The notes under the pieces were generated by a model. It saw only the letters and a program-made list of their open reading frames with translations. It did no database searches and was not told the DNA's origin. DNA of 64,000 nucleotides from Candidatus Palauibacter ramosifaciens (GTDB taxonomy: Bacteria > Gemmatimonadota > Gemmatimonadetes > Palauibacterales > Palauibacteraceae), in the NCBI GenBank assembly GCA_009845855.1, contig VXYT01000112.1, positions 8,472 to 72,471 of the forward strand, read 5' to 3'. Shown here piece after piece: positions 6,761 to 62,959 of this stretch. Position 1 is the first letter of the stretch. The number at the start of each line of letters is the position of its first letter. Made by a program: the position numbers and the translations under genes.

Positions 6761-7345
6761 TCAGGCGTTCTGGTAGGTCTCGATCTCGTCGGAAGTCAGC
6801 GCGCACACGCGAAACGCGATAAGGTCGATGAGGGAGTCCGTGACGTTCTTCTGGCGGAGGTTCCGCGCCCGCGCGTCCTCCGCGGAGGGTCGCGCCTCGC
6901 GCAGGGTCACGAGCCGGGCGGCCAGCCAGTCCAGGAAATCGTGTACGACGTCGCGGTGTTCGCGGTCGCGGTCCGGCTCGCCGTTGGGAGCCTTCGGGAG
7001 GAACGCATCGATGAGCGCGAGCAGCCCGGGGAAGATCATCTCCGTGAGTTCCTCGTCGCCGATGAGTTCCTCTTCGGTGATCTCCTCCCAGCTCATCTCG
7101 TTCCAGTACAACTCGCACGCCTCCTCGAACAGGTGGCGCCGCACTTCGGGAGACGCCTTCCTGAGGACGATGTCGCCGGGCGAGAGCCTGCGCCCCGCGA
7201 CCTTCTGCATGCCGCGAATGCGTTCCTGGATGAGGGTTCGGCCGGCCAGAGAGTGGGCTCGGTCGGGCGTTTCGGCGGCGGCGGGCCGGGGTTGCGTTTC
7301 GTTGTTCACGGAGCCGAAGATGCGACGGCCACGGTGAAGGAACAA
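6761..7345 (-). CDS. hypothetical protein upstream of etfBA (start uncertain; an internal ATG at 7210 is equally plausible)
   Basis: Acidic, Trp-containing composition looks protein-like: ...FEEACELYWNEMSWEEITEEELIGDEELTEMIFPGLLALIDAF.... It lies on the same strand 24 bp before etfB. I do not recognise the family. Confidence 0.4.
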   Translation of the reverse strand: MFLHRGRRIFGSVNNETQPRPAAAETPDRAHSLAGRTLIQERIRGMQKVAGRRLSPGDIVLRKASPEVRRHLFEEACELYWNEMSWEEITEEELIGDEELTEMIFPGLLALIDAFLPKAPNGEPDRDREHRDVVHDFLDWLAARLVTLREARPSAEDARARNLRQKNVTDSLIDLIAFRVCALTSDEIETYQNA

Positions 7346-7410
7346 GCGCCAGGCCGAACGCCGACGGGAGCCGGTGCAACGGCCGGCTTCGAGGGCGTGT
7401 TACCCAAGCG

Positions 7411-8076
7411 ATGGGGACGTCTTTGGCGGAGGAAACGCGAACGCGCAGCGGATCGCAGGGCGACGCGGCCGGTCCCGGTTCCGGACCTGTCGAGCCGCCG
7501 GATCCCGGCGCGGACGAACCCGGCCTCGTGGAAGCCGTGCAGGCCGGCGACTCGCAGGCGTTTTCCCTGTTCGTGACGAGATACACGGACCCGGCCTACG
7601 CCGTGGCGCTGTCGATTCTGCGGCACGAGCAGGACGCGGAAGATGCGGTGCAGGCCGCTTTCATTCGCGCGCTCGAGCGGATCGGGCAGTTGCGGCCGGG
7701 AAGCCGTTTCGGCCCGTGGTTCTATCGCGTGCTGAGGAGCACGTGCCTGAACCTCAGGCGACGCGAGTTGCTGCGGACCCATTCGGAGCTGAAGGACACT
7801 GCGGCGTCGCGGGACGACCCGCACCGGGAGTTCGAGCGGAAGTACGCCCGGCAGCGGGTGCTCGACGCGCTCGCGGAGCTTCCGGAACGACAGAGAACGG
7901 CGGTCATGATGTACGACCTCGAAGGGTACGACCACGCGGAGATCGCGGAGATCCTCGGGATCGCGGTCGGAACTTCCAGGGCCAACCTTCACCACGGCAG
8001 GCACGCGCTGCGCCGCCTGCTCGGCGAAGTGCCGGCGTCCGGCGCCGGAGGAACGGATGAGGATGGAGATGAATAG
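7411..8076 (+). CDS. ECF RNA polymerase sigma factor (second copy in the window)
   Basis: Shows ECF sigma region-2 and region-4 sequence: FSLFVTRYTDPAYAVALSILRHEQDAEDAVQAAFIRA and ...MMYDLEGYDHAEIAEILGIAVGTSRANLHHGRHALRR. Confidence 0.9.
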   Translation: MGTSLAEETRTRSGSQGDAAGPGSGPVEPPDPGADEPGLVEAVQAGDSQAFSLFVTRYTDPAYAVALSILRHEQDAEDAVQAAFIRALERIGQLRPGSRFGPWFYRVLRSTCLNLRRRELLRTHSELKDTAASRDDPHREFERKYARQRVLDALAELPERQRTAVMMYDLEGYDHAEIAEILGIAVGTSRANLHHGRHALRRLLGEVPASGAGGTDEDGDE

Positions 8077-13729: not shown

Positions 13730-13742
13730 CGCGGGGACCGGC

Positions 13743-20976: not shown

Positions 20977-21121
20977 GATTCTCTCCTTTGCGATGCGTGA
21001 GCAGGTCAGCGAGGCACGCGAATCTCCGATCGGGGGGAGGGACTTCAAACCGCATCTCCGCCACGGCCGGAGCTGGCCGGTCCCACCTTGACGCCGCAGC
21101 CGGGAGAGGGTCTGCTCAGGG

Positions 21122-22105: not shown

Positions 22106-22667
22106 CAGCCGGGCTGCCGGCTGGCCGCCGGCTCAGATCCTCCGCTTCGGAAGGCCGCCGTGGACGGCGAACCGGAGCAGTTCCGTCTTTCTGCCGCGCT
22201 TTCGCCGGACCCCGATGATGACGTGGTCGACCACCTGGTCGCGGTCTTCGATGGACACCGCCACATCGACGGACCCGTCCGCGGCCGAGATCCGCGTCCG
22301 CACCGACCGGCCCGGCTCCGCGTCCGCCGTACGTGCCGGATTGCGGCACAGCGTGCGGGACGAACGGCGCCCCCCCGGCACCGGCCGCGACAGCTTCAAC
22401 AGACGGAACCAGTCGGGCTGATAGCTTATCCGCCACAGGTTGCCGAGCTGGTCGAGTCCCCTTCCTTCGCGATTGTGTCTGGCCATCGGGCGCTCGCGGG
22501 TCGCAGTTACGGTTGCGGCGCGGTCGCCTTGACCGTGCCCGGCGGCACCATTATGGTCGGTGCGTCCACCTCGGACCACATCCCCCGGCCGCAAGCAGGA
22601 CACCTCACGAACCGACCATGCCGTACGCGGCGTGGCTGCAGCCCGGCTCACTCTCTTCCGGAGGCAG

Positions 22668-27641: not shown

Positions 27642-27712
27642 GGTTCCCCCGGCCGCGACCGGTGCGGGCTGACGATGAGGAGGATGGTTGAGGTGGAAGA
27701 GGAGGCACGGCA

Positions 27713-30241
27713 GTGACGCAAGGCACCCTGCAGCACGAACGCATCGAACGCCGCGCACTCGAGCAGGAGATGCGCGAGTCGTTCATCGACTACTCGATGA
27801 GCGTCATCGTGCAGCGTGCGCTCCCCGATGCCCGCGACGGCCTGAAGCCGGTCCATCGCCGGATCCTTTACGCAATGCTGGAAGAGGGGATGCGCCCCTC
27901 GCGGCCCCACAAGAAGAGCGCGACGGTCGTGGGCGACGTCCTGGGCCGGTATCACCCGCACGGCGATGGGGCGGTGTACGACACCATCGTCCGCATGGTC
28001 CAGCACTTCTCGCTGCGCTATCCGCTCATCGACGGCCAGGGCAACTTCGGGTCGATCGACGGCGATTCCGCCGCCGCCTACCGGTACACGGAAGTGCGGA
28101 TGACGCCGGTCGCCATGGACCTCCTCGCCGACATCGAGCGCGACACCGTCGACAAGCGACCCAACTTCGACGGGCGCCTCAGCGAGCCGGTGGTTCTGCC
28201 CTGCCGGCTGCCGCACCTCCTGCTGAACGGCAGCGACGGGATCGCGGTCGGCATGGCGACGAAGATCCCGCCGCATAACGCCGGGGAACTCCTCGCCGCG
28301 GTCGACCACCTTGTCGCGAACCCGCATTGCGACATCGAAGATCTGCTCGCACGCCTGCCCGGGCCCGACTTCCCGACAGGCGGATACATCCAGGGCCGGT
28401 CCGGCATCGAGTCCGCCTACCGGACCGGTCGGGGACGCCTCGACATGCGCGCCAGGATCCACATTGAGGAGGGCAGGTTCGGGAAGAGCTCGCTGATCGT
28501 TACGGAACTCCCCTATCAGGTGAACAAGACGCGCGTGATCGAGCAGATCACGAAGCTCGTGCGCGCCGGGCGGGCTGACGCGATCACCGACCTGCGCGAC
28601 GAGTCCGACCGCGACGGGATCCGGCTCGTGATCGAGCTCAAGCGCGACGCGAAGCCGAAGAAGGTGCTCGCGACCCTGTTCAAGAAAACGCAGCTCCGCT
28701 ACACATTCGGCGTGATCATGCTCGCCCTCGTAGATGGCAAGCCCGAGGAGCTGGATCTGAGGAGAGTCCTCGGCACCTGGATCGATCATCGCCTCTCCGT
28801 GATCCGCCGCGGCGCCGCGCACGACCTCGCCCGGGCCGGGGACCGCGCGCACGTCGTCGAAGGACTGCGGACGGCGCTCGACGAAATCGATCGCGTCATC
28901 GACATCATCCGCGGCTCGAAGACGCCGGCCGCCGCGCAGAAGGCACTCCTCGCGGCGTTCGACCTCACGGAGCGGCAGGCGGACGCGATCCTCGCCATGC
29001 GGCTCGTGCGGCTGACGGGCCTGGAACGGGACAAGCTGGCTGAGGAACTCAGGGCGCTGCGGGAGGAGATCACGCGCCTGACCGCCCTGGTGGAGGACGA
29101 GGCGGCCCGGCGGGGATTCCTGCGAGAGGAGATTCGGGAGCTGGCGGGACGCTACGACGACCCCAGGCGGACGGAGATCCTCGATGACGACGCGGAGTTC
29201 CGGCTGTCGAAGGGGGGCGGCGGCGAGGCGCAGCTGGTGCTCGTGAGTCGGGGCGGCTACGTGAAGGCGCAGCCTGCCGCAACCGGCGGGGGGATGGCGG
29301 GCGCCGAAGTGCTGTCCGCCCGTGAAGGCGACTTCGCGCGCCACGCGTTCCTGGCGCGGGGGACGCATACGCTCCTCGCGTTCACGGCCCGCGGCAACGC
29401 GCATGCGCTACCCGTGTCGGCGCTGCCGAGGGGCACGCGGAGCTCCCGGGGCCGCCACCTCGAGGAGTTCATCGAGCTGGAGCCGGCCGACGAGATCGTC
29501 GCGCTGCTCGCGGCCGAGACGTTCGCCGATGACCGGTTCCTCGTGGTGGCCACGCGACGGGGTCACGCGAAGCGTTCGGCGCTGTCGGAGTACGCGAACG
29601 CCCGGAGCGCGGGCATCATCGGAGCCGGGATCGCGCGCGGCGACGAGGCCGTGGCCGCGTTCGTCACCGAGGGGAGCAGCGACCTCCTGTTCGCGACGCG
29701 ATCCGGCCAGGCGATCCGCTTCCCGGAGTCCGCCATCCGAGCCATGGGGCGCACGGCCCGCGGCGTCAAGGCCATCGACCTGGCGCCCGGCGACGTGGTG
29801 GTCGCCGCGACGGCTCCACGCGCGGACTCCGATCTGCTCGTGGCTACCGCCGCCGGGTACGGCAAGCGCATCCCGTTCACCGAATTCAAGGTCCAGGGCC
29901 GAGCAGGCAAGGGTTTCACCGTCCTTCCCGAGCGGGCGCGTACCGGCGGTCTCGTGGGGTTCACCGAAGCGCACGACGCGGACGAGGTGGCCTGGGAACT
30001 GTCCGATGGGTCCGTGGAGGCGATGTCGGCGGCCAGCGTGATCCGCCGGGCGCCCCGCGACGCCGGGCGCCCCGCCGTGCGGCTGCCGGCCGGCGTTGCG
30101 GTGGAGGCGGTACACCCGATGTACTCGGGACGCCGCGCGCGCACCGGATCTCCTGCCGGCGAGGAGACCGGTGAGCATGCATTCCCGGAAACGCCCCCGG
30201 GCGGCGGGGATCCGCAGGCCGAGTTGGAGTTCGAAGCATGA
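27713..30241 (+). CDS. gyrA: DNA gyrase subunit A
   Basis: N-terminus [32 protein letters not shown] has the catalytic Tyr region. The [13 protein letters not shown] pattern fits GyrA better than ParC. A C-terminal beta-pinwheel is present. A canonical QRRGGKG GyrA-box is not obvious. Confidence 0.85.
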
Positions 30242-37626: not shown

Positions 37627-39994
<2,368 letters not shown>

Positions 39995-39998
<4 letters not shown>

Positions 39999-41167
39999 GC
40001 GATCAGCCGTCCATTGCGCAGGCGCCAGCGCGCGAGCTTCCCACCTAACAGCCCTACGTCACCGGGCTTGGGCGCCGTGAGAATCACCTGACCGCCCCGC
40101 TCGGACTCGAAGAGGCGAAACAGCCGGTCGGAACGTCCCTCGTCGAGTTCCGCAAACACGTCGTCGAGGACGTACAGCGGCTCGCGGCCGAGCCGTTCCC
40201 TGAGCCGATCCGCTTCGAGCAGGCGCAGGGCGAGCGCTGCCGTGCGCTGCTGTCCGCTCGACCCGTAGCTCCGGAGGTCGCGGGGGCCCTCCGGCGCCTC
40301 GACTTCGAACCGGATCTCGTCACGGTGCGGGCCCACCACGGTCATGCCCTGCCGACGCTCACGTTCTCCGGCCCTCTCGAGCGCGTGTCGAAAGCGGTCC
40401 TCCCACGACACCGCGCCCTCCGCACCGTCCGTTCCGCCATTCGAAGCGATCGAAGCCGAATACCGAAGCCCCGCCCGGTCTCCTCCCGAGATCCGTGCGT
40501 AGAAATCGGCGTATCGCTCCGCCCCCTCCGACACCCACTCCGCCCGCCTTTCCGTGAGGACTCCGCCCGCCTCGATCAACCCTTCCGTCCACGCTTCGAT
40601 CTCGTCGTTCGACCCGCCGCGCCGCAGCGCCTCGTTCCGCTGCGACAGAAGACCCCGGTAGCGCTGCAGCGCCGGCAGGTAGCCCACCACGCCCACCGAG
40701 AGCGCGACGTCGAGGAAGCGACGCCGCAGCGTCGGCCCTCCGCGCACGATCTCGGCGTCGTCGAGGCGGAACGCCGCGACCCCCACCGAGCCGATCCCCG
40801 CCGAAACCCGCTCCACCTCGAGCGCGTCGATCTCGACCTTCTTGATCCGTTGAGACCGGTCGTAGGCCGCAGCCACGGACATCCCCCCCTCCACCTCACC
40901 TTCCACCCGAAACACGGTCTGTCCGAACCGCACAAGGTCGCGGTCCCGCACGCCTCGAAAGGACCGAAAAACCTCGAGGTAGCAGATCGCCTCGAGGAGG
41001 TTCGTCTTGCCCGATCCGTTGGGCCCGATGATCGCGACGCCGGCTTCGGGAAACTCGCATTCGAGTCGTTCGAAGTTGCGGTAGTCGCGCAGGATCAAGC
41101 GCCTGAGAAAAGGCGCGGAGGACGCCTCGGGCTGGCGGATGGGCGGTGCCTCCGGTGTCTTCGTCAC
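39995..41167 (-). CDS. recF: DNA replication and repair protein RecF
   Basis: LRRLILRDYRNFERLE...IIGPNGSGKTNLLEAICYLE is Walker A. A C-terminal signature LSSGQQRTAALALRL and a Walker B LYVLDDVFAELD are also present. Confidence 0.9.
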
Positions 41168-41292
41168 AGGCTTGTGAAAATACGGCGAAAAGCCTTATAC
41201 CGCAAGGAAATTTGTCCGTTGGAGGCCTTCTCCGGAAAGCACCGCCGAGCGGTTGCCCGAGAGGCTCCCCGCAGGCAGCTTCGAAGACGTCC

Positions 41293-42187: not shown

Positions 42188-42727
42188 TCAGGGCCCAGCG
42201 TCCGGGAGCAGCGATGTCCTCCAGGCCTCCAGCTGCCTGATGGTATACTGTCGCCTGAGCGGTCGGCGCGGACGTACGCCGACACTCGTCGCCAGGGCCT
42301 CAAGCGAAACAACTCGATCGAGCCATCCGAGTGCGTGAGCCGCCGTTACTGCCGCCTTGTCGCAACTACACAGGATGAAGCCATCTGCCAGCATGTATGC
42401 CAACGCCAACAAGTCGCGCTCACCGGCGTCGAGGCGGTGGGCATCGGGGTACTGCAAACGAAAGGTGACGTCCGCTGCGCTGGACAGCGTTCTCACGGTG
42501 GCGCGGGCGATGTCCTGTTCGCGCACTGGGACGTACCCGCGCATGGAAGGATCGCCGCGCCGCAGTTCTTCCGCACACTCCTCGACTGTGACGATCTGTC
42601 TGCCACCGGCCACGGCGTTCCAGCAACCGGTATCCACCGCCTCGATGACGATCATGGTGTCCACGAGTACGATGTCGTTCGGGGCGAAACCTACGGGTTC
42701 ACGCCTCGAAATACGTCTCGTGGCCAT
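42188..42727 (-). CDS. PIN-like small protein (DUF4411-like) coupled to the upstream XRE/ImmA gene; candidate toxin/nuclease partner
   Basis: Its first 29 nt overlap the upstream gene's 3' end. N-terminus NDIVLVDTMIVIEAVDTGCWNAVAGG resembles the PIN/DUF4411 start, with acidic residues positioned as in PIN folds. Confidence 0.45.
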   Translation of the reverse strand: MATRRISRREPVGFAPNDIVLVDTMIVIEAVDTGCWNAVAGGRQIVTVEECAEELRRGDPSMRGYVPVREQDIARATVRTLSSAADVTFRLQYPDAHRLDAGERDLLALAYMLADGFILCSCDKAAVTAAHALGWLDRVVSLEALATSVGVRPRRPLRRQYTIRQLEAWRTSLLPDAGP

Positions 42728-43823
42728 AACCTCGGATGAGGGAAACGAGATCCGCCAACGACAGGCCGAGCAGAGTAGCCGCCCGCCTTACGGAGAGGCG
42801 ACCAGCATCCAGGGCTACAACGACGCGATCGATGAACGGCTTGCTGAATGCCGGCACTTCGGGGGGGGGATCGGTTGTGTGCCCGTTGGCCACGAAGCGC
42901 CGGTCATCGATCTCCGCGAGATCCGACCCTGCGAGCAGTCCGGCGTTGTGAAGACGCCACTTGCAGGCCGTTCCGGAGACGCGGAAATCGTCCGCGATCT
43001 CATTGATCCGCTGGTGGATGCCGGTTTCCCCCGCCGACCGCTCCCACCGCTGCCGCAGCATCTTCTCGGGCATGAGGATCGCGGCGGCGAAGTTCTCGGC
43101 AAGTCGCTCGACACGCCACCCCTTTCCGGTTCTTGGAACGCTAACGTCTTCGGTCCGCTCGGGTGGCATTGCGTCCCACGTCAGCAGATGAAACAGCTCG
43201 TGGGCCAGGTCGAAGTTCCGACGTCGTTCAGGATCGTTACGATTAACCAACACACAACTCAGCCCGGGAACCCTCGAGGCTGCACCGGAAACGCCAGGTG
43301 GTGTGTCGACATCGAGCACCAGGATTGAGGCGCGGCTCTCCATGGCCGAACGCAGCTTCGCCGCGGGGCACGAGCCCAGTTGCCAGCGATCAGCTACCGA
43401 CTCCCCGGAGGCTTGGGCGTCCTCGAAGGATGATCCGGCCGTGAGGGCCAGCTTGGACTCCAGCCACCGCGGCTCAAAACCCTGCTCCAGGGAGAGCTCA
43501 CGGTACATGGCAATCCAGCGTCCCGCGCAATCTTCGAAGTCGTCGAGCACCGCACCCGCGACGCCCGTACTCGTCCTGAACGAGAACTGGCCCTCGCCCA
43601 CGAGTCGAAAGGGGTCGGTGAAGTAGTCAAGATCGACCCCGAGCACGTCCATGGCGCTGACCAGTTCCCTCGCGCTCAGAGGTCGTTCCCCGGATTCGAT
43701 GCTGGCAATCGTCTGCCGATGCCGGAGGCCTAAGGCGCCGGCAAGTTCCTCTTGCGTCAGGCGAGCGCGTTTTCGGGCCGCCCTGAAACGGAGGCCAACG
43801 CGAGGATCGGATGCCAACGACAT
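42699..43823 (-). CDS. XRE-family HTH fused to ImmA/IrrE (COG2856) zinc metallopeptidase domain
   Basis: N-terminal HTH: RLTQEELAGALGLRHRQTIASIESGERPLSARELVSAMDVLGV. Central HExxH: FDLAHELFHLL. The 374-aa architecture matches ImmA/IrrE-like anti-repressor proteases. Confidence 0.8.
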   Translation of the reverse strand: MSLASDPRVGLRFRAARKRARLTQEELAGALGLRHRQTIASIESGERPLSARELVSAMDVLGVDLDYFTDPFRLVGEGQFSFRTSTGVAGAVLDDFEDCAGRWIAMYRELSLEQGFEPRWLESKLALTAGSSFEDAQASGESVADRWQLGSCPAAKLRSAMESRASILVLDVDTPPGVSGAASRVPGLSCVLVNRNDPERRRNFDLAHELFHLLTWDAMPPERTEDVSVPRTGKGWRVERLAENFAAAILMPEKMLRQRWERSAGETGIHQRINEIADDFRVSGTACKWRLHNAGLLAGSDLAEIDDRRFVANGHTTDPPPEVPAFSKPFIDRVVVALDAGRLSVRRAATLLGLSLADLVSLIRGYGHETYFEA

Positions 43824-43826
43824 AAA

Positions 43827-43861
43827 TGCAATCTATTCTTGCATCAAACGATTTGCAATCT
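43827..43861 (-). promoter_or_regulatory. putative autoregulatory operator: palindrome ATGCAA-N6-TTGCAT plus a direct repeat TGCAATCT x2 in an AT-rich patch immediately upstream of the XRE/ImmA start
   Basis: Palindrome arms at 43827-43832 and 43839-43844. TGCAATCT occurs at 43828-43835 and 43854-43861. The local GC is far below the ~70% background. No SD is present, so a leaderless mRNA is possible. Confidence 0.4.
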
Positions 43862-52291: not shown

Positions 52292-53128
52292 TCAGCGATC
52301 GGCGTCCGCCGCATTCTGTTCGAAGTCGCGAAGATACATGTTCACGCTGCCTCTCCTCATGCGGCTCTTGATCTGCACGATGAGCCGACGATCGTCGTCC
52401 GAGATGAAGACCTCGGCCTGCCCCTCTTCCCCGAAGAGGCCATCGGTCTGGATGATGGGACGCACGACGAACGTCTCGAACGTCCCCGCGGGGACCCGAA
52501 CGCGCTCGCGGCGGAGAACCTCGACGATGACGGGATTGCCATCCTCTTCGAAGTAGCGGTCGAATTCATAGTTCTGTCCGACTGCAAAGGGGAGGGTCCG
52601 GATCAGGAAGAGATACGAGATCTCGTCCAGGGCGCCCTGCGGTATGGGAAGGTCCCGTTGCCGGCGGTGCGGACGGTAGGCTTGAATCTCCTCATCCCAG
52701 TCTTCCCGGGTCGCCGTCAGCGCGTCGTGATCCAACTCCCAGCGCTGGTGTCTCCGGTAATCGCCCTGATGCAGAATCTCCTCGAACCGGAGCGTTCGGT
52801 ACGGTTCCGTGGCGAGCCAGCTCACCGAGCGGTCGTCCATCCTGTAGAAGGGTATGCTCCCCTTCATCTCCATCGCGATCCGGTACGCGGGCGTGCTGCG
52901 GATCGTGTCCTGCGCTTCCACGCGCAGATGCATCCGCCCGAACCGCACGGGCCCGAACGTCACCGCGTATTCGGCTTCCTGACCGATCGCAAAGGGCCAC
53001 GCCCCGGGGAACGGACCACCGTCCGCCGCTTCCGATCCGGCCTGGCCCGCGAGGGGACCGACGCCGGCAAGGGAGGCGGAGAGAACCGACGCGAAAACCG
53101 TGGCGAGCCCGGGGCGACGCTTCGGCAT
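52292..53128 (-). CDS. secreted protein, DUF3108-like (tentative)
   Basis: Signal peptide MPKRRPGLATVFASVLSASLAGVG. Aromatic-rich beta-type sequence follows. The ATG at 53128 lies 1 nt after the upstream GT2 stop. The ORF-track N-terminal extension is Cys-rich junk. Confidence 0.45.
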   Translation of the reverse strand: MPKRRPGLATVFASVLSASLAGVGPLAGQAGSEAADGGPFPGAWPFAIGQEAEYAVTFGPVRFGRMHLRVEAQDTIRSTPAYRIAMEMKGSIPFYRMDDRSVSWLATEPYRTLRFEEILHQGDYRRHQRWELDHDALTATREDWDEEIQAYRPHRRQRDLPIPQGALDEISYLFLIRTLPFAVGQNYEFDRYFEEDGNPVIVEVLRRERVRVPAGTFETFVVRPIIQTDGLFGEEGQAEVFISDDDRRLIVQIKSRMRRGSVNMYLRDFEQNAADADR

Positions 53129-53129
53129 C

Positions 53130-53879
53130 TCAGGCGACATCCATGACCTGCCGGCCGATCTCGCGCAGGGCGCGGTCCCGGCCGACCGCGAACAGCTGCC
53201 GGAGCTGCTCGCCGGCCCGGAAGCGGGCCTCGCGGTATCGCCGGAGGGGATGCGGACCATGCGGAATCTCCTCGAATCTTCGTACAAACGGCCACACCTG
53301 CAGCAGCAGCGCGGCGTCGGCGGCCCAACCTTCGTACTGCAACAGCGGCCCATCGCCGGCGGCGACGGCGCCTTCCAGTGCGAACAACCTATATAACCGA
53401 AGAGAAGCATAAGGGTCCGTTACGGCTGGAGCCGCCAGCAGATGACGGGCGCAGAGCCGGCCGGCCGCCCGGGTCAGGCGTCGGGGCAGAGGTTCGGGTT
53501 CGGCGCGCGCGACCGTGACGAGGTCGGCGCCGCCCTCGAAGTGGCGAAGCATCTCCGGCAGGCGCTCGGGCGGATCGGAAAAATCTCCCTGCATGGAGAC
53601 GAACGCATCGCGCCGGGGATAGCCCGAGCGGCGGAGCGTCGCCCGGATCAGCCGGTCGAGGCTCGCGGCGTATCCCCGGCGTTCCTCGTTGCGGAGCACG
53701 GTCAGCGGGAGCACCCGCGGATACCGCTCAAGCGCTTCGGCCGTCCCGTCGTCCGAGGCATCGTCGCAGACGAGCACGTGAAACCGTCGCCGCTCGCCGT
53801 AGAGCAATTCGCGGATGCGCCACAGCAGCGGACCGATGGTCTCGCGCTCGTTATGTACTGGAATCCCGATGTGGATCAC
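53130..53879 (-). CDS. family 2 glycosyltransferase (DPM1-like)
   Basis: VIHIGIPVHNERETIGPL...FHVLVCDDASDDGT holds the DxD region. The GTG start at 53879 forms a GTGA overlap with the lpxL-like stop. Confidence 0.75.
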   Translation of the reverse strand: MIHIGIPVHNERETIGPLLWRIRELLYGERRRFHVLVCDDASDDGTAEALERYPRVLPLTVLRNEERRGYAASLDRLIRATLRRSGYPRRDAFVSMQGDFSDPPERLPEMLRHFEGGADLVTVARAEPEPLPRRLTRAAGRLCARHLLAAPAVTDPYASLRLYRLFALEGAVAAGDGPLLQYEGWAADAALLLQVWPFVRRFEEIPHGPHPLRRYREARFRAGEQLRQLFAVGRDRALREIGRQVMDVA

Positions 53880-54820
53880 GCCTGCTCCCCGCTTTGCGCC
53901 ACCGGCTTCCAGCGCCGGTGGAACCAGAAGTACTGCTCCGGCCGCCGTTCGATCTCCCTCTCCAGCGCCCGAACCCATCGCTTCGTGACCTCGGCCGGGT
54001 CGCCGGGGCGGGATCCGGCGCCGTCGATCTCTTCATGGACGATCCTGTACCCCGTCGGGTCTCGAACGAGAGCCGCGAAGAAGAGAGGGACATCGGCCGC
54101 GAGACACAAACGCGCGGGGGCGAGCGATGTCCACGCGGGGCGGCCCAGGAAGTCGATCGGGACGCTGCCGCGCCGGGCGTGCTGATCGGCCACGAGGGCC
54201 AGGATCCGGCCGGAGCGCAGGGCGTCGAGCGCGGGCCGCGCCGCCGCGTCGCGGTCGAGCACGTCCAGTCCCAGCCGCGCGCGCAGGTCGCGCAGCCGAC
54301 GGCCGAAGGCGCCCCGCTGACGCTGCACGACCGCCGTCACACGCACTCCGAGCGCCCGCACGGCGGCGCCGCCGAGCTCCCAGTTGCCGAGGTGCCCGGC
54401 GACGACCGCGGCGCCGCCCCGCTCCGCGATCGCGGCGTGCAGACGCGGACCCAGCCCGGCCTCGTCGGTGACGCGGGACAGCGTCCGCTCGATCCGGGGC
54501 GGGCCGCCCATGAGGAGCGCCGCCTCCCGGCCGAAGTGGCGGTAGCAGGCGCGAGCCGTGTCGCGCACCCAGTGCGGCGTCGCGGCCGGGAAGCTCGCGG
54601 CGAGCTGCGCGTCAACCACGCGACGACGCACGCGGAGAGGATCGCGACACAGCGCCCCGAGCGTCCGGCCGGCCGCGAGCGCCACCGGTTCCGGCGCCGC
54701 GCGCAGTCCCAGGTGCAGACCGGTCACACCGCCGTCCACCAACGCATCCGCGAGCCGTCGGCCGGCGCCCCGGCCGCCGTCCCCGCCACGCCGGCCGGCC
54801 CGGCCCGCCCGGCCCTTCAT
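53876..54820 (-). CDS. lysophospholipid/lipid A biosynthesis acyltransferase (LpxL/HtrB family)
   Basis: Carries the HX4D-type motif AGHLGNWELGG and a C-terminal EQYFWFHRRWK. ATGA overlap with the msbA stop. Confidence 0.8.
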   Translation of the reverse strand: MKGRAGRAGRRGGDGGRGAGRRLADALVDGGVTGLHLGLRAAPEPVALAAGRTLGALCRDPLRVRRRVVDAQLAASFPAATPHWVRDTARACYRHFGREAALLMGGPPRIERTLSRVTDEAGLGPRLHAAIAERGGAAVVAGHLGNWELGGAAVRALGVRVTAVVQRQRGAFGRRLRDLRARLGLDVLDRDAAARPALDALRSGRILALVADQHARRGSVPIDFLGRPAWTSLAPARLCLAADVPLFFAALVRDPTGYRIVHEEIDGAGSRPGDPAEVTKRWVRALEREIERRPEQYFWFHRRWKPVAQSGEQA

Positions 54821-56652
54821 GGTTGCGAGGCGTGTTCGAGCTGCCGGCCGAAGAGCCGGCGATACGTCCCGCCGCGAGAGACGAGCGCGTCATGGCGGCC
54901 GGCGTCCACGAGTCGCCCGCGCTCGAGGACGAAGATCCGGTGGGCCTCGCGCACCGTGGAAAGCCGGTGGGCGACGACGATCACCGTGCGGCCGCGAAGG
55001 CCTTCCGCCGCCGCCCTCAGCGCCGTCTCCGTTTCGGCGTCGACGGCCGACGTGGCTTCGTCCAGGATGAGGATGGGCGGGTCGTGGAAGAGTGCCCGCG
55101 CGATCCCGATGCGCTGGCGCTGTCCCGTCGACAGGCGCACCCCGCGATCGCCGAGCACGGTGTCGTAACCGTCGGGCAGTCCCGCGATGAATCCATGCGC
55201 CCCGGCCGTCCGCGCGGCCGCCTCGACCGCCGCCGGGTCCGGCGCGTCCTCCCCGTAGGCGATGTTCGCCGCCACCGTGTCGTGGAAGAGCACCGCCTCC
55301 TGCCCCACGAGACCGGTGAGGCGGCGCAGGGAATCCACCGAGAACTCCCGGATGTCCGTCCCGTCGATCGTGACCCTCCCCGCCTGCGGGTCCGCAAACC
55401 TGGGCAGCAGGTCGACCAGCGTGGATTTTCCGCTCCCCGACGCCCCGACGATGGCGACGACGGCCCCGTGCGGGATGACGAGGTCGACGTCTCGAAGCGC
55501 CGCCCGGCCTCGCTCGTAGGCGAAGCTGACCCCTTCGTAGCGGATCTCCCGTTCGGGGCCCTTCGCGATCCGCGGCCCTCCGGCCGGCTCCGGGTTCCGG
55601 TCGAGAATCTCGAAGAAACGGTCGGCCGCGGCGAGGCCCTGAGCGGCGATGGCCGGGTACTGCGCAACCCCCTTCACCGGTGAGATGGCGCGCAGCGCGA
55701 TGGTCACGAATGCGACAAACTGTTCAGGCGCGATGGACCCGCCGTTCTCCACGAACGACGCCCCGACCCAGACGAGCCCGAGCGCCACGACGGACGCGAG
55801 CGTTTCGGAGATGGGCGATGCGAGGTGCCGGGTCGTGGCCGCCGCGATCCGCTTGCGGCTGAACGCGTCCGAACGATGTCGAAAACGCTTCTTCTCGAAG
55901 TCCTCGGCAACCCTCGACTTCACGAGCCGCACCGCGCCCAGCGATTCCTGCAGCGCCGCGACGAGTTCGCCGTGGTCATCCCACGTGCGGCGGAACCTCT
56001 CGCGCAACCGGCCGAGCAGCGGCCGCAGGCCGAGCCACACGAGCGGCACCAGGATGGCGGCGACCAGCGCCAGCCTCCACGAGAGCGCGAACAGCGCCAC
56101 GGCGTACGCCGCGAGGGTCGCCGCCTGGCGCACCGCCTGCGCGAGCGCGTCGGTCACGACGGGCTTCGCCTCCCCGGCATCCGCGATCACGCGCGCGATC
56201 AACTGTCCCGCCTTGCCGCGCTCGAAGAAGGCGAGCGGCAGGTGCTGCAGGTGCGCATGCACGGCGTTGCGCACATCGCGGACGAGGAACTCCTGGGTGC
56301 GGATGGAGAGCACTCGCCCCCCGACGACGCAGAGGTTCTTGAGGAGGAGCGCGGCCAGCACCAGTACGCACACGGCCCGCAACCCGTCCAGCCCCGCTTC
56401 CGGGCCGAGCCACCCCCCCGCGATCCCGTCGATGAAGCGCTCCGCCGCATTCCGTCCGCCGCCGGGCAGCGGAGGCCCCATGCCGAAGAGCGAGCGGAGG
56501 AACGGGATCAGAAGGAGGAGGCTGAACGCTTCGAGTCCTGCCGCGAGCACGCCCAGCGCCAGGCTCGCGAGGAAGGTCCAGCGATAGGGGTGCAGGAACC
56601 GGAGCAGCCGCCGATACGACGAGGCGCCCCCCCCGTTCCGCCCCGCGTTCAT
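54817..56652 (-). CDS. msbA: ABC transporter ATP-binding/permease protein (MsbA-like lipid A/lipid exporter)
   Basis: A 6-TM N-terminal domain precedes the NBD with Walker A GASGSGKST, signature LSTGQRQRIGIARAL, Walker B ILILDEATSAVD and H-loop VVAHRLST. Confidence 0.85.
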   Translation of the reverse strand: MNAGRNGGGASSYRRLLRFLHPYRWTFLASLALGVLAAGLEAFSLLLLIPFLRSLFGMGPPLPGGGRNAAERFIDGIAGGWLGPEAGLDGLRAVCVLVLAALLLKNLCVVGGRVLSIRTQEFLVRDVRNAVHAHLQHLPLAFFERGKAGQLIARVIADAGEAKPVVTDALAQAVRQAATLAAYAVALFALSWRLALVAAILVPLVWLGLRPLLGRLRERFRRTWDDHGELVAALQESLGAVRLVKSRVAEDFEKKRFRHRSDAFSRKRIAAATTRHLASPISETLASVVALGLVWVGASFVENGGSIAPEQFVAFVTIALRAISPVKGVAQYPAIAAQGLAAADRFFEILDRNPEPAGGPRIAKGPEREIRYEGVSFAYERGRAALRDVDLVIPHGAVVAIVGASGSGKSTLVDLLPRFADPQAGRVTIDGTDIREFSVDSLRRLTGLVGQEAVLFHDTVAANIAYGEDAPDPAAVEAAARTAGAHGFIAGLPDGYDTVLGDRGVRLSTGQRQRIGIARALFHDPPILILDEATSAVDAETETALRAAAEGLRGRTVIVVAHRLSTVREAHRIFVLERGRLVDAGRHDALVSRGGTYRRLFGRQLEHASQP

Positions 56653-56656
56653 CGAG

Positions 56657-58231
56657 TCACCGCGGCGTGAGCAGCGCGGCCGGAAGCACCATCTCGTCGG
56701 GGCTCACTCCGCCGTGCAGGAAACTGTCCCGGTATCGATTCTGGTATTCCCGCAGCCTGGTCGGATAAACGAAGAAGTAGTCTTCGCGGCAAAGGGCGAA
56801 GGTCTTGTTGATCCCGCCGGGAGGCAGCCGCCATTCGTCGGAGTCCGAAGTCGACATGACCGCGGCCGGGTTCTCCACCTTCATGTCGTCGCCGATCTTG
56901 TAGCGCAGACTCGTTGACGCGTCGCGCCCGGCGTAGATCGTGGCGGGCCGCCGGCAGTGAATCGAACCGTGGTCTGTCGTGAGAAGGACACGGACGCCCC
57001 GCTGCGCGGCCAGTCGGAGCGCCTTCAGCGCCGGCGAACGCTCGAACCAGGTCACCGTCAACGAGCGTAGCGCGCTGCTGTCCTGCGCCATCTCCCAGAT
57101 GAGGCGCGACCGCGCCCTCCCGTGCGTGAGCATGTCCACGAAGCCGAACACAAGCGCCGTGGCCGAAGGGGAGGACAGGTAGCCGCCGAGCCGCGCCAGC
57201 ATGGGCTCGCTCTCCTGGGCCGAGAAGATCTTCTCGTAGTGCACGGGGATCCGCGACGCAGTCAGTTCGTGGATATGCCGTTCGAAGAGTTCATCTTCGA
57301 ACGAGTTGTAGCCGATCTCGCTCCCTCTCTCCCACCAATCGGGATAACTCTCGGCGAGTTCGTCCGCGAAGGTGCCTCCGAAGATTGCGTTGCGCGCAAA
57401 CGGAGTCGCGGTGGGTAGCAGGCCCGCGTAGAGCGCCTCCTCGATCTCGAAGTATTCGCTCACGATGGGGAGGACAGCCCGCCACTGGTCCAGCCGCATG
57501 CAGTCCATCACGACGAGGAGCGCCGCCGGATCCTCGTCCAGGATCGGGCGGAAGAAGCGAGGCAGCACGTCCACGGAGAGGGTCGGCCCCGGCTCGCCTC
57601 CCTCATGCACCCACTCTCCGTACCGATCCGCCACGAGATCGCAGAAACCGCGGCTCAGGTCGGTGTGCAGCCCTTTGAGGATCTCGCGCAGGCCCGACTC
57701 GCCGGCCTCCTCGAGCTTCAGGTCCCAGTCGACGAACTCGGAATACAGGTCGGCCCAATCCCGCCACGAAGCCGCCGTGGAGACCCGCTCCCGCAACTCG
57801 CCGAAGCGGCGCGAGAAATCGCGCGTGATGTGCTCGTGGCGCAGGGCCGGGCCGGCGAGGAGCCGCGTCACGACCGACAGCACCTGTCGGGGGCTCGTCG
57901 GCTTGACGATGTAATCGTCCGCCCGCCGTCCGATCGCCTCGTGCATGGTCGATTCTTCTTCGCTCTTCGTGACCATCACCACGGGAAGGCGCGGGGCGGA
58001 ACTCCGGATGCGGTCGAGCACCTCGATCCCGCGCAGCCCGGGCATCCGCTCATCCAGCAACACGAGATCGTAGGAAGCCGCCGTCAGGAGTTCCATCGCG
58101 TCCTGGCCGTTCATCACGGCATCCACGTGATATCCCGACGATCGCAGCAGCATGAGATGCGGACGCAGCAGGTCGACTTCGTCGTCCACCCACAGGATCC
58201 GGCCCGCCGCGGTCTTCGTCCCTTCGGTCAT
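56657..58231 (-). CDS. response regulator: CheY-like receiver + PglZ (alkaline-phosphatase-like) domain; PorX-like
   Basis: N-terminal REC: ILWVDDEVDLL...YDLVLLDERMPGLRGIEV...VVMVTKSEEE (phospho-acceptor Asp in LLDERMPG). C-terminal ~350 aa resemble the PglZ/AP superfamily (VVMDCMRLDQW..., LLTTDHGS). The 524 aa length matches PorX-type regulators. Confidence 0.7.
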   Translation of the reverse strand: MTEGTKTAAGRILWVDDEVDLLRPHLMLLRSSGYHVDAVMNGQDAMELLTAASYDLVLLDERMPGLRGIEVLDRIRSSAPRLPVVMVTKSEEESTMHEAIGRRADDYIVKPTSPRQVLSVVTRLLAGPALRHEHITRDFSRRFGELRERVSTAASWRDWADLYSEFVDWDLKLEEAGESGLREILKGLHTDLSRGFCDLVADRYGEWVHEGGEPGPTLSVDVLPRFFRPILDEDPAALLVVMDCMRLDQWRAVLPIVSEYFEIEEALYAGLLPTATPFARNAIFGGTFADELAESYPDWWERGSEIGYNSFEDELFERHIHELTASRIPVHYEKIFSAQESEPMLARLGGYLSSPSATALVFGFVDMLTHGRARSRLIWEMAQDSSALRSLTVTWFERSPALKALRLAAQRGVRVLLTTDHGSIHCRRPATIYAGRDASTSLRYKIGDDMKVENPAAVMSTSDSDEWRLPPGGINKTFALCREDYFFVYPTRLREYQNRYRDSFLHGGVSPDEMVLPAALLTPR

Positions 58232-58241: not shown

Positions 58242-59303
58242 TCAGGTGTTCAGATATGAGCGCATGGCCCGCTCCAGCTTAAGCATGACATCCTCGACGC
58301 GGATCCTCGACATGCGTCGGCGCCGGGTGTCGCGCGACGGCTTTCGCTCGACGTCGGCGCCGGCCCGGCCGCGAAACCGGTCCACCGTGAGGTCCGTGAA
58401 CCGGCCGTAGGGACCGCTGCGTTCGGGGTCCGTGTACCCGTACAGTCCGATGGTCGGCGTCCCCAGCGCCACCGCCATGTGCAGAGGACCCGTGTCCGGC
58501 GCCAGCACGAGGTCGCTCGCGTAGAGCCGACCCGCCAACTCCCGCAGCGTGCCGCCCAGCGCGACGCGCGGCGGAGCCCCGCACAATTCCCCGAGGCGGC
58601 GGGCATCCCGCAGCTCCTCTTCGGAGTCTCCTCCCAGGAGGACGGGCTGAAGACCCAGATCGCCGGCCGCCGCATCGATTACCCGCGCCGTGCCCTCGAG
58701 GGTCCAGTTTCTGCGGGCGTTGGAACTCCGGGGCACGACGGCAAGCACCGGGCGCGAGAATCGCTCCCGCCACCGCGCCGAAACCTCCCGTTCCGCCTCC
58801 GTGAAATGAAAACGCCACTCCAGGCGTCGCGGGACGCCGAGATGGTCGAGGAACTCGAACAGTTCGTCCTGAATGTGGGCTACGGGGGCCGACGGGATGC
58901 GGCGGTTGGTGGCCAGCCAGCTCAGGTCGCGGGCGCGCGTGCGGTCATGGCCCAGGCGCTTCGGGGCGCGCAGGAGACGCGTGACCACCCCTCCCTTGAA
59001 GTTCGGCTGCAGACAGATGACGAGATCGAACGTCTCTGCCGCCACCTCGCGCCGAAAGCGGGAATAGGCACGGGCGCCGAGCCGTCGGTGAAAGAGCTGG
59101 ATCCGGTCCACGTCCGGCCGGCCGGCCATCAGCGTCGCGGGGCCCGGTTGCAGCACCCAGGTGATGTGGGCGGCGGGCCACGCCCGTCGGAGGGACGCGA
59201 CGATGGGCATCCCCTGGACGGTGCTTCCCACCGCGCTCATGAGCACGATGGCGACCCGGCGCGGCGGAGCGTCGGCGCTCCGCGGGGATCTATCCGGCCG
59301 CAT
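58242..59303 (-). CDS. family 9 glycosyltransferase (LPS heptosyltransferase-like)
   Basis: VAIVLMSAVGSTVQGMPIVASLRRAWPAAHITWV... and the C-terminal LGGTLRELAGRLYASDLVLAPDTGPLHMAVALGTPTIGLYG are GT9 motifs. Start uncertain: ATG 59303, or the ORF-track 59423. Confidence 0.8.
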   Translation of the reverse strand: MRPDRSPRSADAPPRRVAIVLMSAVGSTVQGMPIVASLRRAWPAAHITWVLQPGPATLMAGRPDVDRIQLFHRRLGARAYSRFRREVAAETFDLVICLQPNFKGGVVTRLLRAPKRLGHDRTRARDLSWLATNRRIPSAPVAHIQDELFEFLDHLGVPRRLEWRFHFTEAEREVSARWRERFSRPVLAVVPRSSNARRNWTLEGTARVIDAAAGDLGLQPVLLGGDSEEELRDARRLGELCGAPPRVALGGTLRELAGRLYASDLVLAPDTGPLHMAVALGTPTIGLYGYTDPERSGPYGRFTDLTVDRFRGRAGADVERKPSRDTRRRRMSRIRVEDVMLKLERAMRSYLNT

Positions 59304-59409
59304 CCCGGTACAGAAGTTGGCGGACCGTGCCAAACCCGCGGGGCGGAACCGGCGCGGGAAAGACCCGCCCGGGCTGACAACGGCCCGAAAACACAGTAAT
59401 CTCGGGGCG

Positions 59410-60888
59410 ATGCGAACTCTCACCCGCTACATCCTGAGTCGTCACGCCGGGCCGTTCATCTTCGCCGTCATCGGCACCACGGTGCTGCTCCTCCTCGACC
59501 AGGTGAGCAAGCGCTTCGAGCGGCTCATCGGCAAGGACCTCGAGTGGACGGTGATCGCCGAGGTCTTCGCCTACTCGATCCCCTTCATCCTCGCCCAGAC
59601 CCTGCCGATGGCCGTGCTCATCGCCGTCCTGTACGTCTTCAGCCGGATGGAGGGCGACTTCGAGATCACAGCCGTCAAGGCGAGCGGCATCCCCCTGTCG
59701 CGGGCGATGGCCCCGCTTCTCGTCTGTGCCGTCATTCTCGCCGGCGGAATGACCTGGTTCAACAACACGGTCCTGCCGCAGTCGAATCATCACCTGCAGG
59801 TGCTGCTCACGGGAATCGGCCGCAAGAAGCCGACCTTCAACCTCCGGGAACATACGATCAACGAGGTGCTCCCGTCCCATGTCTACGTACACCCCGGCAT
59901 GATCGACCGGGAAGAAAGCGTGGTTCACGATGTCGCGATCTACGATGAGCGGAACGGCCAGGAGAGCCGCTCCATCTATGCGACCCGCGGAAAGATGGGC
60001 TTTTCGGAGGAGGGAGAGGACCTCTACTTCGACCTCGAGGACGGCGTCGTCCAGGTACGCATGAACGAACGTCCGCACGCCTTCCGGCGCATCGCCTTCG
60101 AGCGGATGCTGCTCAAGATCCCGGATGTAGCGAACGGACTCGAGCGGGATACCGCGGCCATTCGCGGCGATCGCGAGATGAACATCGCCGACATGCGCGT
60201 GGAGGCGGATCGCGGCGCGCAGATGGCGGACGCGGCGCGTTCGGAGAGTCTCGCGTACGCGCGGGCGATCACCGGCATGCTGCTGGATTTCGAGCAACCT
60301 CTCGCGGACGCGCCGGTGCCGGGGCCCGGGCCGGCGGACGGCGCCTGGACCCCGGAGGGCGAGACCCGCGACTGGGAAGATGACATCTCCGACCTGGAAC
60401 GCGGGAGAGATCGCCTCCCCGCGACACCCGGAACGCCCGCGGGGCGCGAGATCGAGCCGGGACCCGCGCAGGAAGCCGCCGCGCCGGACTCCACGACGCA
60501 GGTCGCCGAGAGCGCGGCCCGCCGCTTCTACTCCGCCTCCGATGCCGCGAACCAGTTCCAGTCATACGCCGAGCGGGAGGTCACGGGCCTTCGCCGCATC
60601 AACCAGTACTGGGTCGAGATTCACAAGAAGGGGACGATCCCGGCTGCGTGCATCGTCTTCGTCCTCCTCGGCGCCCCGATCGCCGTGCGGTTCCCGCGTG
60701 GGGGGGTCGCGCTCGTCGTCGGCGTCAGTCTGGGCATCTTCGGAGCGTATTACGTCTCGCTCATCGGGGGGGAGCGACTTGCCGACCGCCTCTGGATCTC
60801 GCCGCTCTGGGCCATGTGGGCCCCGAACGTCATCTTCGGCGCGGCGGGGCTCGTGGCCCTGGCGCGCTCCACCAAGGTGATGCGCTGA
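59410..60888 (+). CDS. lptF: LPS export ABC permease LptF/LptG family (first of a pair) with a ~130-aa low-complexity periplasmic insertion
   Basis: MRTLTRYILSRHAGPFIFAVIGTTVLLLL... is a YjgP/YjgQ-type N-terminus. The C-terminal TM helices are IPAACIVFVLLGAPIAV.... The ATG at 59410 is internal to the ORF-track ORF that starts at 59161. Confidence 0.8.
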   Translation: MRTLTRYILSRHAGPFIFAVIGTTVLLLLDQVSKRFERLIGKDLEWTVIAEVFAYSIPFILAQTLPMAVLIAVLYVFSRMEGDFEITAVKASGIPLSRAMAPLLVCAVILAGGMTWFNNTVLPQSNHHLQVLLTGIGRKKPTFNLREHTINEVLPSHVYVHPGMIDREESVVHDVAIYDERNGQESRSIYATRGKMGFSEEGEDLYFDLEDGVVQVRMNERPHAFRRIAFERMLLKIPDVANGLERDTAAIRGDREMNIADMRVEADRGAQMADAARSESLAYARAITGMLLDFEQPLADAPVPGPGPADGAWTPEGETRDWEDDISDLERGRDRLPATPGTPAGREIEPGPAQEAAAPDSTTQVAESAARRFYSASDAANQFQSYAEREVTGLRRINQYWVEIHKKGTIPAACIVFVLLGAPIAVRFPRGGVALVVGVSLGIFGAYYVSLIGGERLADRLWISPLWAMWAPNVIFGAAGLVALARSTKVMR

Positions 60889-60892: not shown

Positions 60893-61969
60893 GTGAAGCT
60901 GCTCGACCGCTACGTCCTTTCCCAGTTCCTGAGGATATTCGCGGCCTGCGCGCTCGGCGTGCCGTTCCTCTTCATGGTCATCGACATCGCCGACAACCTC
61001 GACAGGTTCCTCGACCAGGGGTCGACCTGGTCGCAGATCGTCCTCCACTACCTGTACGGGTTCCCATACCATTCGCTGCTCGGGTTCCCGATTGCCGCCC
61101 TGCTCGGGTCCGTGTTCACGGTGGCCTCCATGTCCCGGCACTTCGAGGTCGCGGCCGTCAAGGCCGGCGGCGTTTCGTTCTATCGGCTCGCCCTCCCGAT
61201 CCTTTGCGGCGCTACGCTGCTCAGTTTCGTCGCGCTCGGCCTCACGGAACTCGTCGCCGTGACGACGCGGGAATCGGCCGAAGTCCTCGAGCAGGAGGAG
61301 GCCCGCAGCCAGACGATCCGCAACTCCTTCGTCTACCGGGGAGACGAAGGCCTGGTATACAAGGCGCGACTGCTCGACGCGCGCGAAGGCCGGATGGACG
61401 ACGTGCAGATCGAGCGGAGGGGGTCGGGGCCCGACTTTCCGACCATACACATCACGGCCAACGTCGCGCGGTACGACTCGGCGTCCTCGCGCTGGGTGCT
61501 CGAGCGGGGATGGATGCGCGAGTTCCGCGGCCCGGAGGAGGAGACCGCCTACGAGTTCGGCGAGTTGTTCGTGCGGCAACTGGATGAGACGCCCGAGGAG
61601 CTTCAGGCCAGGCCCAAGGAACCGGACGAGATGCGCTACGCGGAACTGGGGCGCCTCATCGAGGCCGTCGAACGGTCGGGCGGCACGACGAACGGGCTCA
61701 GGACCTCCCGCGCGCAGCGCATCGCCTTCCCCTTCACATGCCTGGTGATCGCCGTGTTCGGCATACCGCTTGCGCAGAGCAACAAACGCGGCGGCGCGCC
61801 GACCTCGATCGGAATCGCGCTCGGGACGACGATCCTCTTCCTGACTCTGATCCGCATCGCCGAGGCGATGGGCGCGGGAGGGGCGCTGTTGCCGGCGGCG
61901 GCGGCCTGGCTGCCCAACGTCATCTTCTTCGGCGCCGGCCTCCTGCTATTCGCAAAACTGCGTACGTAG
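60893..61969 (+). CDS. lptG: LPS export ABC permease LptF/LptG family (second of the pair)
   Basis: GTG start. (M)KLLDRYVLSQFLRIFAACALGVPFLFMVIDIADNLDRF... is the YjgP/YjgQ architecture. Confidence 0.8.
   Translation: MKLLDRYVLSQFLRIFAACALGVPFLFMVIDIADNLDRFLDQGSTWSQIVLHYLYGFPYHSLLGFPIAALLGSVFTVASMSRHFEVAAVKAGGVSFYRLALPILCGATLLSFVALGLTELVAVTTRESAEVLEQEEARSQTIRNSFVYRGDEGLVYKARLLDAREGRMDDVQIERRGSGPDFPTIHITANVARYDSASSRWVLERGWMREFRGPEEETAYEFGELFVRQLDETPEELQARPKEPDEMRYAELGRLIEAVERSGGTTNGLRTSRAQRIAFPFTCLVIAVFGIPLAQSNKRGGAPTSIGIALGTTILFLTLIRIAEAMGAGGALLPAAAAWLPNVIFFGAGLLLFAKLRT

Positions 61970-61993: not shown

Positions 61994-62959
<966 letters not shown>

Follow-up and report, generated by a model that had tools for sequence, protein, structure and literature searches.

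The window analysed here, a stretch of 64,000 nucleotides (nt) from the genome of Candidatus Palauibacter ramosifaciens (Gemmatimonadota; contig VXYT01000112.1), encodes at positions 56657..58231 of its minus strand a protein of 524 amino acids (aa) that, judged by its sequence, is an orthologue of PorX, the type IX secretion system's response regulator. We assign a probability of about 0.8 to the reading that this gene is the Gemmatimonadota porX, inherited vertically, that its product works by the PorX mechanism as homology would predict, and that it is placed in a co-transcribed run of lipopolysaccharide (LPS) genes. The junction of porX with a downstream gene for an MsbA-like exporter is a trait of the whole phylum Gemmatimonadota and replaces the porX-tsaE junction of other phyla.

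The coordinates of the gene are exact, as given by the call of its open reading frame (ORF), and its GC content at the three codon positions (0.66/0.46/0.85) is typical of real genes in this window of ~68% GC. The product is built from a receiver (REC) domain, a helical bundle and a phosphodiesterase domain of the PglZ type, which falls within the alkaline-phosphatase superfamily. Pfam places the REC domain (Response_reg, PF00072, E 1.2e-25) at residues 12-121 (57869..58198, minus strand) and the core of the PglZ domain (PF08665, E 3.5e-12, 47 bits versus a cutoff of 25) at residues 238-429 (56945..57520, minus strand); neither another domain nor, in particular, a DNA-binding domain was found by Pfam in the product. 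The PglZ region extends beyond these Pfam bounds and reaches residue 524 when the PorX model and the alignment to the crystal structure are considered. The assignment to PorX is carried by the NCBIfam equivalog model T9SS_RR_PorX (NF052313), which matches with 527 bits (cutoff 300) and aligns residues 11-524 of the protein to positions 2-513 of the 513 model positions. It is also carried by the PorX of Porphyromonas gingivalis (PGN_1019; PDB 7PV7, 7PVA and 7PVK), a protein of ~518 aa with the same three-part architecture, to which the window protein is colinear across residues 11-523 with 36% identity (7PV7, E 2e-111). Searches of the PDB gave full-length matches with E values of 1e-102 to 1e-111 to the P. 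gingivalis entries 7PV7/7PVK and to 8TED/8P6F. The length criterion used for PorX proteins was 500-530 aa (PMC9757075). Public databases already name close relatives of the protein 'T9SS response regulator signal transducer PorX'. An earlier note on this DNA had described the gene as a PorX-like REC-PglZ regulator outside Bacteroidota; both domains were recovered by profile search, the C-terminal region does match PglZ, and the orthology is to PorX and not to another family of enzymes with a REC domain.

The residues that define PorX of P. gingivalis, i.e. the phospho-acceptor D58, seven metal/nucleophile residues, the phosphate contacts R276/N358 and eleven fold-core residues, are known from the work of Schmitz et al. 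(PMC9757075). We located their equivalents in the window protein and compared them in an alignment of 83 PorX sequences, 34 of which are from Gemmatimonadota and 49 from other lineages. In the REC domain of the window protein, the phospho-acceptor D60, the acidic pair D16/D17, T88 and K110 correspond to D58, D14/D15, T86 and K108 of the P. gingivalis protein. These positions are invariant in the 83 sequences except for gaps at D16/D17/D60, which occur in 1-2 N-terminally incomplete sequences. The complete metal/nucleophile set is present in the PglZ domain (D243, T276, D366, H370, D420, H421 and H506, equivalent to D239, T272, D361, H365, D415, H416 and H500 of P. gingivalis) and is likewise invariant, with the single exception of one sequence in which Ser replaces the Thr nucleophile. 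The phosphate contact R276 is conserved as R280, and so are the 11 fold-core residues. Two positions of the dimer interface, I129 and S389, are altered in the window protein. The equivalents of S385/S389 are S390/T394 in the window protein, whose lineage retains Ser/Thr, whereas most Gemmatimonadota PorX proteins carry a bulky Gln, Arg or Asp there; in P. gingivalis, the mutations S385E/S389E led to loss of PglZ dimerisation and activity (PMC9757075). The dimer interface may be different in much of Gemmatimonadota, or the alignment may be imprecise at these two positions.

PorX has been described as confined to the group of phyla named Fibrobacteres-Chlorobi-Bacteroidetes (FCB) yet spread across it (PMC9757075). 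The closest homologues of the window protein are 58-97% identical, and those that carry an organism name are from Gemmatimonadota, including Candidatus Palauibacter at 90%; 8 independent contigs in public databases carry an identical protein in an identical context. A neighbour-joining tree of the 83 sequences, calculated without support values, shows the 34 Gemmatimonadota proteins as monophyletic among the PorX clades of the FCB group. Since the topology broadly follows the phyla, porX of Gemmatimonadota appears from its phylogeny to be inherited vertically within this group and not to be a divergent paralogue. A contig labelled Limnocylindria (L077) encodes a PorX that clusters tightly with those of Eisenbacteria; this contig may be mis-binned.

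In the window, porX is the second gene of a co-directional run that comprises a GT9 glycosyltransferase gene, porX, the msbA-like gene, an lpxL-like gene, a GT2 glycosyltransferase gene and a DUF3108 gene; lptFG is divergent from this run and a GDP-mannose dehydratase gene lies beyond. Reading of the junctions showed that the TGA stop codon of the GT9 gene is followed by 10 nt, AAGGCGGCAC, and the ATG of porX, and that the TGA of porX is followed by 4 nt and the ATG of the msbA-like gene. Further downstream, genes as called on public contigs of identical sequence have overlaps of 4, 4 and 11 nt. A terminator scan yielded no terminator-like sites above chance. With gaps and overlaps of 4-11 nt in a co-directional run, porX is almost certainly co-transcribed with the genes of LPS biogenesis and export, as far as gene spacing can predict it. 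The earlier note had put the gene between msbA and GT9 with gaps of 4-10 bp, inside an LPS cluster of lptFG, lpxL, msbA and gmd, and this agrees with the junctions and with the Pfam and NCBIfam matches of the neighbours, provided that msbA is read as msbA-like.

To place this arrangement in a wider context, a genome scan was seeded with a cross-phylum PorX alignment. It yielded at least 80 porX loci, 31 of them from Gemmatimonadota and 49 from other lineages, namely Bacteroidota, Ignavibacteriales, Calditrichota, Balneolaceae, Eisenbacteria, Latescibacterota, Zixibacteria, KSB1, Fibrobacteraceae, one Poribacteria and one 'Limnocylindria' contig. The loci were searched by tblastn with the proteins of the window neighbours, and two loci (L005 and L007) were added by exact-protein look-up. 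In 28 of the 28 Gemmatimonadota loci for which downstream DNA is available, porX is followed on its own strand by an MsbA-like gene with 40-50% identity, at a distance of ≤81 nt in 24 loci, of 153-373 nt in 3 and of 2.3 kb in 1. The same arrangement is found in L005, in L007 and in the window, and in 0 of the 49 loci of other phyla. PorX identity across the Gemmatimonadota loci with this junction goes down to 45%. No neighbour of porX other than the msbA-like gene is constant throughout the phylum; each of the others is changed in some lineage. Genes for an lpxL-like protein, GT2 and DUF3108 follow the msbA-like gene in Palauibacter-like and Longimicrobiales-like lineages; in Gemmatimonadaceae, a GT4 glycosyltransferase gene follows and lpxL is 3-6 kb away. 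On the upstream side, GT9 precedes porX only in the window and its close relatives L005 and L009, and Gemmatimonadaceae have ruvA, ruvC and yebC at this place. In L007 (5890-10000) and ~10 related loci, porX is preceded by genes for a tetratricopeptide-repeat protein with a GWxTD domain (TIGR04514), a 400-aa ORF without family and a 225-aa ORF; the latter shows a weak TonB C-terminal match and ends one base before the porX start. The only break of the junction was seen in L015, a locus from a metagenome-assembled Gemmatimonadota genome and the one with the distance of 2.3 kb, where an 808-aa ORF on the opposite strand (11571-13997, minus strand) splits porX from the msbA-like gene; from its translation, and with no family search, this ORF was judged to resemble a class A penicillin-binding protein.

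The situation in other phyla is different. When the ORFs within 7 kb of porX were clustered without prior assumptions in 48 non-Gemmatimonadota loci, tsaE (~140 aa; PF02367, E 9e-43) was found to follow porX on the same strand in 39 of them, with a median gap of 12 nt, and genes for a tsaB-like protein, a GNAT acetyltransferase and accD often follow tsaE. TsaE is a tRNA-modification gene without a known tie to secretion or PorX function. We know of no paper on the porX-tsaE pairing, at which no literature search was aimed. The non-Gemmatimonadota porX loci are L039-L087, with L039:11578-11994 and L043:4265-5698 as examples. A kinase with HisKA/HATPase_c domains is encoded immediately upstream of porX on the same strand in 13 loci from Eisenbacteria, Zixibacteria, Latescibacterota, Fibrobacteraceae, Ignavibacteriales, Poribacteria and unclassified metagenome-assembled genomes (MAGs), and serS often precedes the kinase gene. 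These kinases are candidates for cognate partners of the PorY type. The PorX proteins of the kinase-linked loci (Eisenbacteria, Zixibacteria, Latescibacterota, Fibrobacteraceae and Ignavibacteriales MAGs) have 37-41% identity to the window protein and the same invariant residues; kinase and tsaE directly flank porX there, upstream and downstream, respectively, whereas the Gemmatimonadota loci have neither gene within 7-10 kb of porX. Bacteroidota have kept porX-tsaE and have no adjacent kinase. No second, tsaE-linked PorX paralogue was found among the 31 Gemmatimonadota loci listed. We infer the direction of change as follows: the ancestral order was likely serS, kinase, porX, tsaE, tsaB-like, GNAT and accD, and Gemmatimonadota would have moved porX out of it to a place before msbA. 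A kinase-porX pair is also present in a long-read Poribacteria chromosome (L057, OZ241983.1, 6.15 Mb). The phylum Poribacteria is usually left out of the FCB group.

The mechanism of the window protein presumably follows the one described for the proteins of P. gingivalis and Flavobacterium johnsoniae (PMC9757075, PMC10951265). By homology, the receiver would be phosphorylated at D60 by a histidine kinase whose gene lies at another place in the genome, phosphorylation would lead to dimerisation, and dimerisation would switch on the two-zinc phosphodiesterase site that the seven metal/nucleophile residues of the PglZ domain are expected to form. As in PorX, this site would hydrolyse linear and cyclic oligonucleotides. 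Since a DNA-binding domain is missing, protein partners are expected to carry the output; in Bacteroidota, this part is played by an extracytoplasmic function (ECF) sigma factor and by PorL/GldL, the motor of secretion. The placement of the gene would ensure co-expression of porX with envelope biogenesis. PorX of F. johnsoniae (Fjoh_2906; PDB 8TED, 8P6F), for which phosphodiesterase activity and receiver-domain-dependent binding to GldL have been described (PMC10951265), is a full-length match to the window protein (E ~1e-102) with the same domain order, and we use its activities as a working model. For F. johnsoniae, a type IX/gliding apparatus has been demonstrated; for Gemmatimonadota, none is established. 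The neighbourhoods differ, too: the flavobacterial loci that we examined have a divergent HD-domain gene upstream of porX and tsaE plus alanine dehydrogenase downstream, and tsaE, in place of the msbA-like gene of the window, is the downstream gene in most Bacteroidota loci examined, a set to which the locus of P. gingivalis itself does not belong.

No kinase gene lies near porX in the window, as is also the case in P. gingivalis. Family scans with Pfam and NCBIfam covered essentially every plausible ORF of the window and revealed no kinase domain of the HisKA or HATPase_c type, the sole HATPase_c match being GyrB. A tblastn comparison of the window with 22 kinases that are encoded at porX loci in other phyla matched only the receiver domain of PorX itself. 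The possibility of a kinase hidden in window ORFs that the first scans had left aside was ruled out by further ORF scans together with this tblastn search, and the earlier claim that the window lacks a sensor kinase is thereby upheld. Because PorX and PorY are both described as orphans in P. gingivalis (PMC9757075), the orphan status of porX is normal for the family and nothing special. P. gingivalis PorX acts with an ECF sigma factor (PMC9757075). An ECF-type sigma factor gene (Sigma70_r2/r4) is present in the window at 7234..8076 (plus strand), 49 kb from porX, and nothing links the two; it is followed by small ORFs without family matches (7910-8473 and 8467-8955) and by an efflux system of the outer-membrane factor/HlyD/MacB type (8934-13176).

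Several observations weigh against our reading of the gene. What is said of the window protein's biochemistry, of its kinase and of its output partners is all inferred by homology, and co-transcription is deduced from gene spacing. The phosphate-platform residue N358 of P. gingivalis is replaced by G363, a Gly that is present in 2 of the 34 Gemmatimonadota sequences, 31 of which have Asn at this position. The base-contact residues K305, L307 and Y332 of the P. gingivalis protein are altered as well and differ between phyla, so that the substrate preference may differ. The label 'MsbA' is insecure from sequence alone. The gene that begins 4 nt past the porX stop (54817..56652, minus strand) encodes an ABC exporter half-transporter of 611 aa (Pfam ABC_membrane and ABC_tran); its best NCBIfam match is TIGR02203 (MsbA_lipidA) with 447 bits, under the cutoff of 602, and its best single-chain PDB matches, MsbA with 308 bits and Sav1866 with 304 bits, are nearly equal. 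We call it MsbA-like because lpxL-like, GT9 and lptFG genes adjoin. Neither a type IX component nor a sorting domain was found by Pfam and NCBIfam in essentially all ORFs of the window. A scan for C-terminal [YF]PNP sorting tails gave 0 hits in ~630 kb of Gemmatimonadota loci versus 4 in ~800 kb of other phyla, which served as positive control. This contrast carries little weight, since the Gemmatimonadota loci represent for the most part one syntenic region.

What the placement of porX means can be read in different ways. We see about an even chance that the link is one of position: porX would be a canonical type IX regulator that has hitch-hiked in a constitutive housekeeping operon, an LPS operon in Gemmatimonadota and a tRNA-modification operon elsewhere, and would be unrelated in function to its neighbours. 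The porX-tsaE junction and the recurrent order serS, kinase, porX, tsaE, tsaB-like, GNAT and accD, a series of unrelated housekeeping genes, speak for this. Every species that encodes type IX components has been found to possess a PorX homologue (PMC10951265, PMC9757075), and a review lists Gemmatimonadetes among the phyla where the type IX system 'may be present' (PMC11285876). However, we found no literature that demonstrates a type IX system in Gemmatimonadota, an older systematic survey assigned the system to Bacteroidetes only (PMC4793230), and the scans of the available Gemmatimonadota DNA, i.e. of the window and of the loci, revealed neither a component nor a cargo of it. Moreover, the junction with the msbA-like gene persisted where every other one in its vicinity changed, an argument in favour of some selective constraint.

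Alternatively, PorX of Gemmatimonadota would have been recruited to control or sense the export of lipid A/LPS, by tuning either the flippase (MsbA-like) or LPS operon expression. We regard such a functional module as possible though rather doubtful, and the same holds for the suggestion that it would coordinate outer-membrane growth with the secretion of surface proteins, with phosphorylated PorX or the cleavage of oligonucleotides as the signal. It is favoured by a junction that is the only local one kept phylum-wide, down to 45% PorX identity and with the other neighbours exchanged, by the absence of this linkage from 49 of 49 loci of other phyla, and by the genes that come next (lpxL, the ArnC-like GT2 and DUF3108 in several lineages, the GT4 glycosyltransferase in Gemmatimonadaceae). 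Secretion and LPS are already linked in P. gingivalis: an excerpt of PMC8545088 describes cargo anchored to anionic LPS (A-LPS), and according to an excerpt of PMC12704123 the lipid A 1-phosphatase activity requires a working type IX system. On the other hand, porX is linked equally tightly to tsaE and the genes behind it in other phyla, so that close packing in an operon says little about the function of this gene. A single ancestral rearrangement that was kept by inertia would give the same 28 of 28, as the loci are not independent events; the pair is split in one locus by the opposite-strand gene resembling a penicillin-binding protein; and the catalytic site is unchanged, so that nothing suggests a new substrate. 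The earlier note had seen in the placement a hint at an undescribed link between such a regulator and LPS assembly. The positional part of this proposal stands and applies to the phylum as a whole (28/28 versus 0/49), whereas the functional part does not follow from it and is weakened by porX-tsaE.

We consider it improbable that PorX of Gemmatimonadota is not, or not only, a regulator of secretion and forms a two-gene module with the MsbA-like exporter, in which a phosphorylation or oligonucleotide signal would gate LPS export or outer-membrane growth, possibly without a canonical type IX system. That the protein is the PglZ of a BREX (bacteriophage exclusion)-type phage defence system or another defence-related enzyme of the alkaline-phosphatase fold, and not PorX, has practically no chance and was ruled out: the BREX models match weakly (NCBIfam BREX_PglZ_3, the second-best family after PorX, with 70 bits, PADLOC PglZ with 58 bits), the former far under its cutoff of 250 and the PorX score of 527; BREX PglZ shares the catalytic fold and the metal-binding residues but, unlike the window protein with its N-terminal receiver domain, has no such domain, is longer (≥600 aa; PMC9757075) and lies among BREX partner genes; and the four neighbours scanned gave no match to a BREX model, the MsbA-like ABC protein having only generic ATPase matches to mad3/mad8, in a neighbourhood of LPS genes.

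Part of this picture is already known, namely the orphan status of PorX, its spread across the FCB group and the automatic annotation of close relatives as PorX. The comparative-genomic elements appear new: porX joined to the msbA-like gene throughout Gemmatimonadota, porX joined to tsaE in other phyla, and kinase genes paired with porX in several candidate phyla; a literature search for porX with msbA or with an LPS operon found no paper. The phylum-wide placement of porX in a lipid A export operon offers a testable hypothesis, according to which PorX signalling is coordinated with outer-membrane biogenesis, and the kinase-porX-tsaE arrangement singles out kinases, absent from the model systems, as candidate cognate partners. 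Should the link be one of position only, the present result amounts to the routine annotation, for an under-studied phylum, of a regulator already known; if the module is true, an ancestral, envelope-related role would be indicated for the whole PorX family. Complete Gemmatimonadota genomes without a type IX system, or a porX mutant with an LPS phenotype, would raise the significance considerably, and absence of the system would support a secretion-independent role.

The remaining genes of the LPS cluster were assigned as follows. Upstream of porX, the GT9 glycosyltransferase of the heptosyltransferase family (58242..59303, minus strand; PF01075, 114 bits) ends 10 nt before the porX start and reaches 101 bits with TIGR02193, under the cutoff of 185. 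Its start is uncertain: the public call gives 59129, and ~59303 fits a 354-aa homologue in L005 and the family model. Two genes for LPS export permeases are oriented divergently to GT9 and porX, an lptF-like one (59203..60888, plus strand; PF03739, 242 bits), the start of which is uncertain with the domain beginning near 59425, and an lptG-like one (60893..61969, plus strand; PF03739, 235 bits). They are followed by the gene for a GDP-mannose 4,6-dehydratase of 321 aa (61994..62959, minus strand; PF16363, 435 bits). Downstream of the msbA-like gene, whose stop it overlaps by 4 nt, lies the gene for an acyltransferase of the LpxL family (late lipid A acylation) with 314 aa (53876..54820, minus strand; PF03279 Lip_A_acyltrans, 112 bits), for which every NCBIfam equivalog match is under its cutoff. 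The next gene encodes a GT2 glycosyltransferase that resembles polyprenyl-phosphate sugar transferases (53130..53879, minus strand; 249 aa on the public contig; PF00535) and has a weak ArnC-like NCBIfam match. The last gene of the co-directional run codes for a DUF3108 protein of 282 aa as called (52292..53140, minus strand; PF11306, 121 bits), which matched neither NCBIfam models nor PDB sequences. DUF3108 follows GT2 in 13 Gemmatimonadota loci. It ends the run of msbA-like, lpxL-like and GT2 genes in the window and in L005, L007, L008, L011-L013 and L015-L020, and this consistent position at the end of an LPS-type run suggests that the DUF3108 family has an unrecognised LPS-related role.

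Away from this cluster, the window also holds gyrA (27692-30241), gyrB (37627-39852), recF (39995-41194), ssb (20602-21543) and rho (22533-23921), so that it may lie near the region of the replication origin. A fusion protein of an XRE-type helix-turn-helix (HTH) domain with an IrrE-like metallopeptidase is encoded at 42699-43832.

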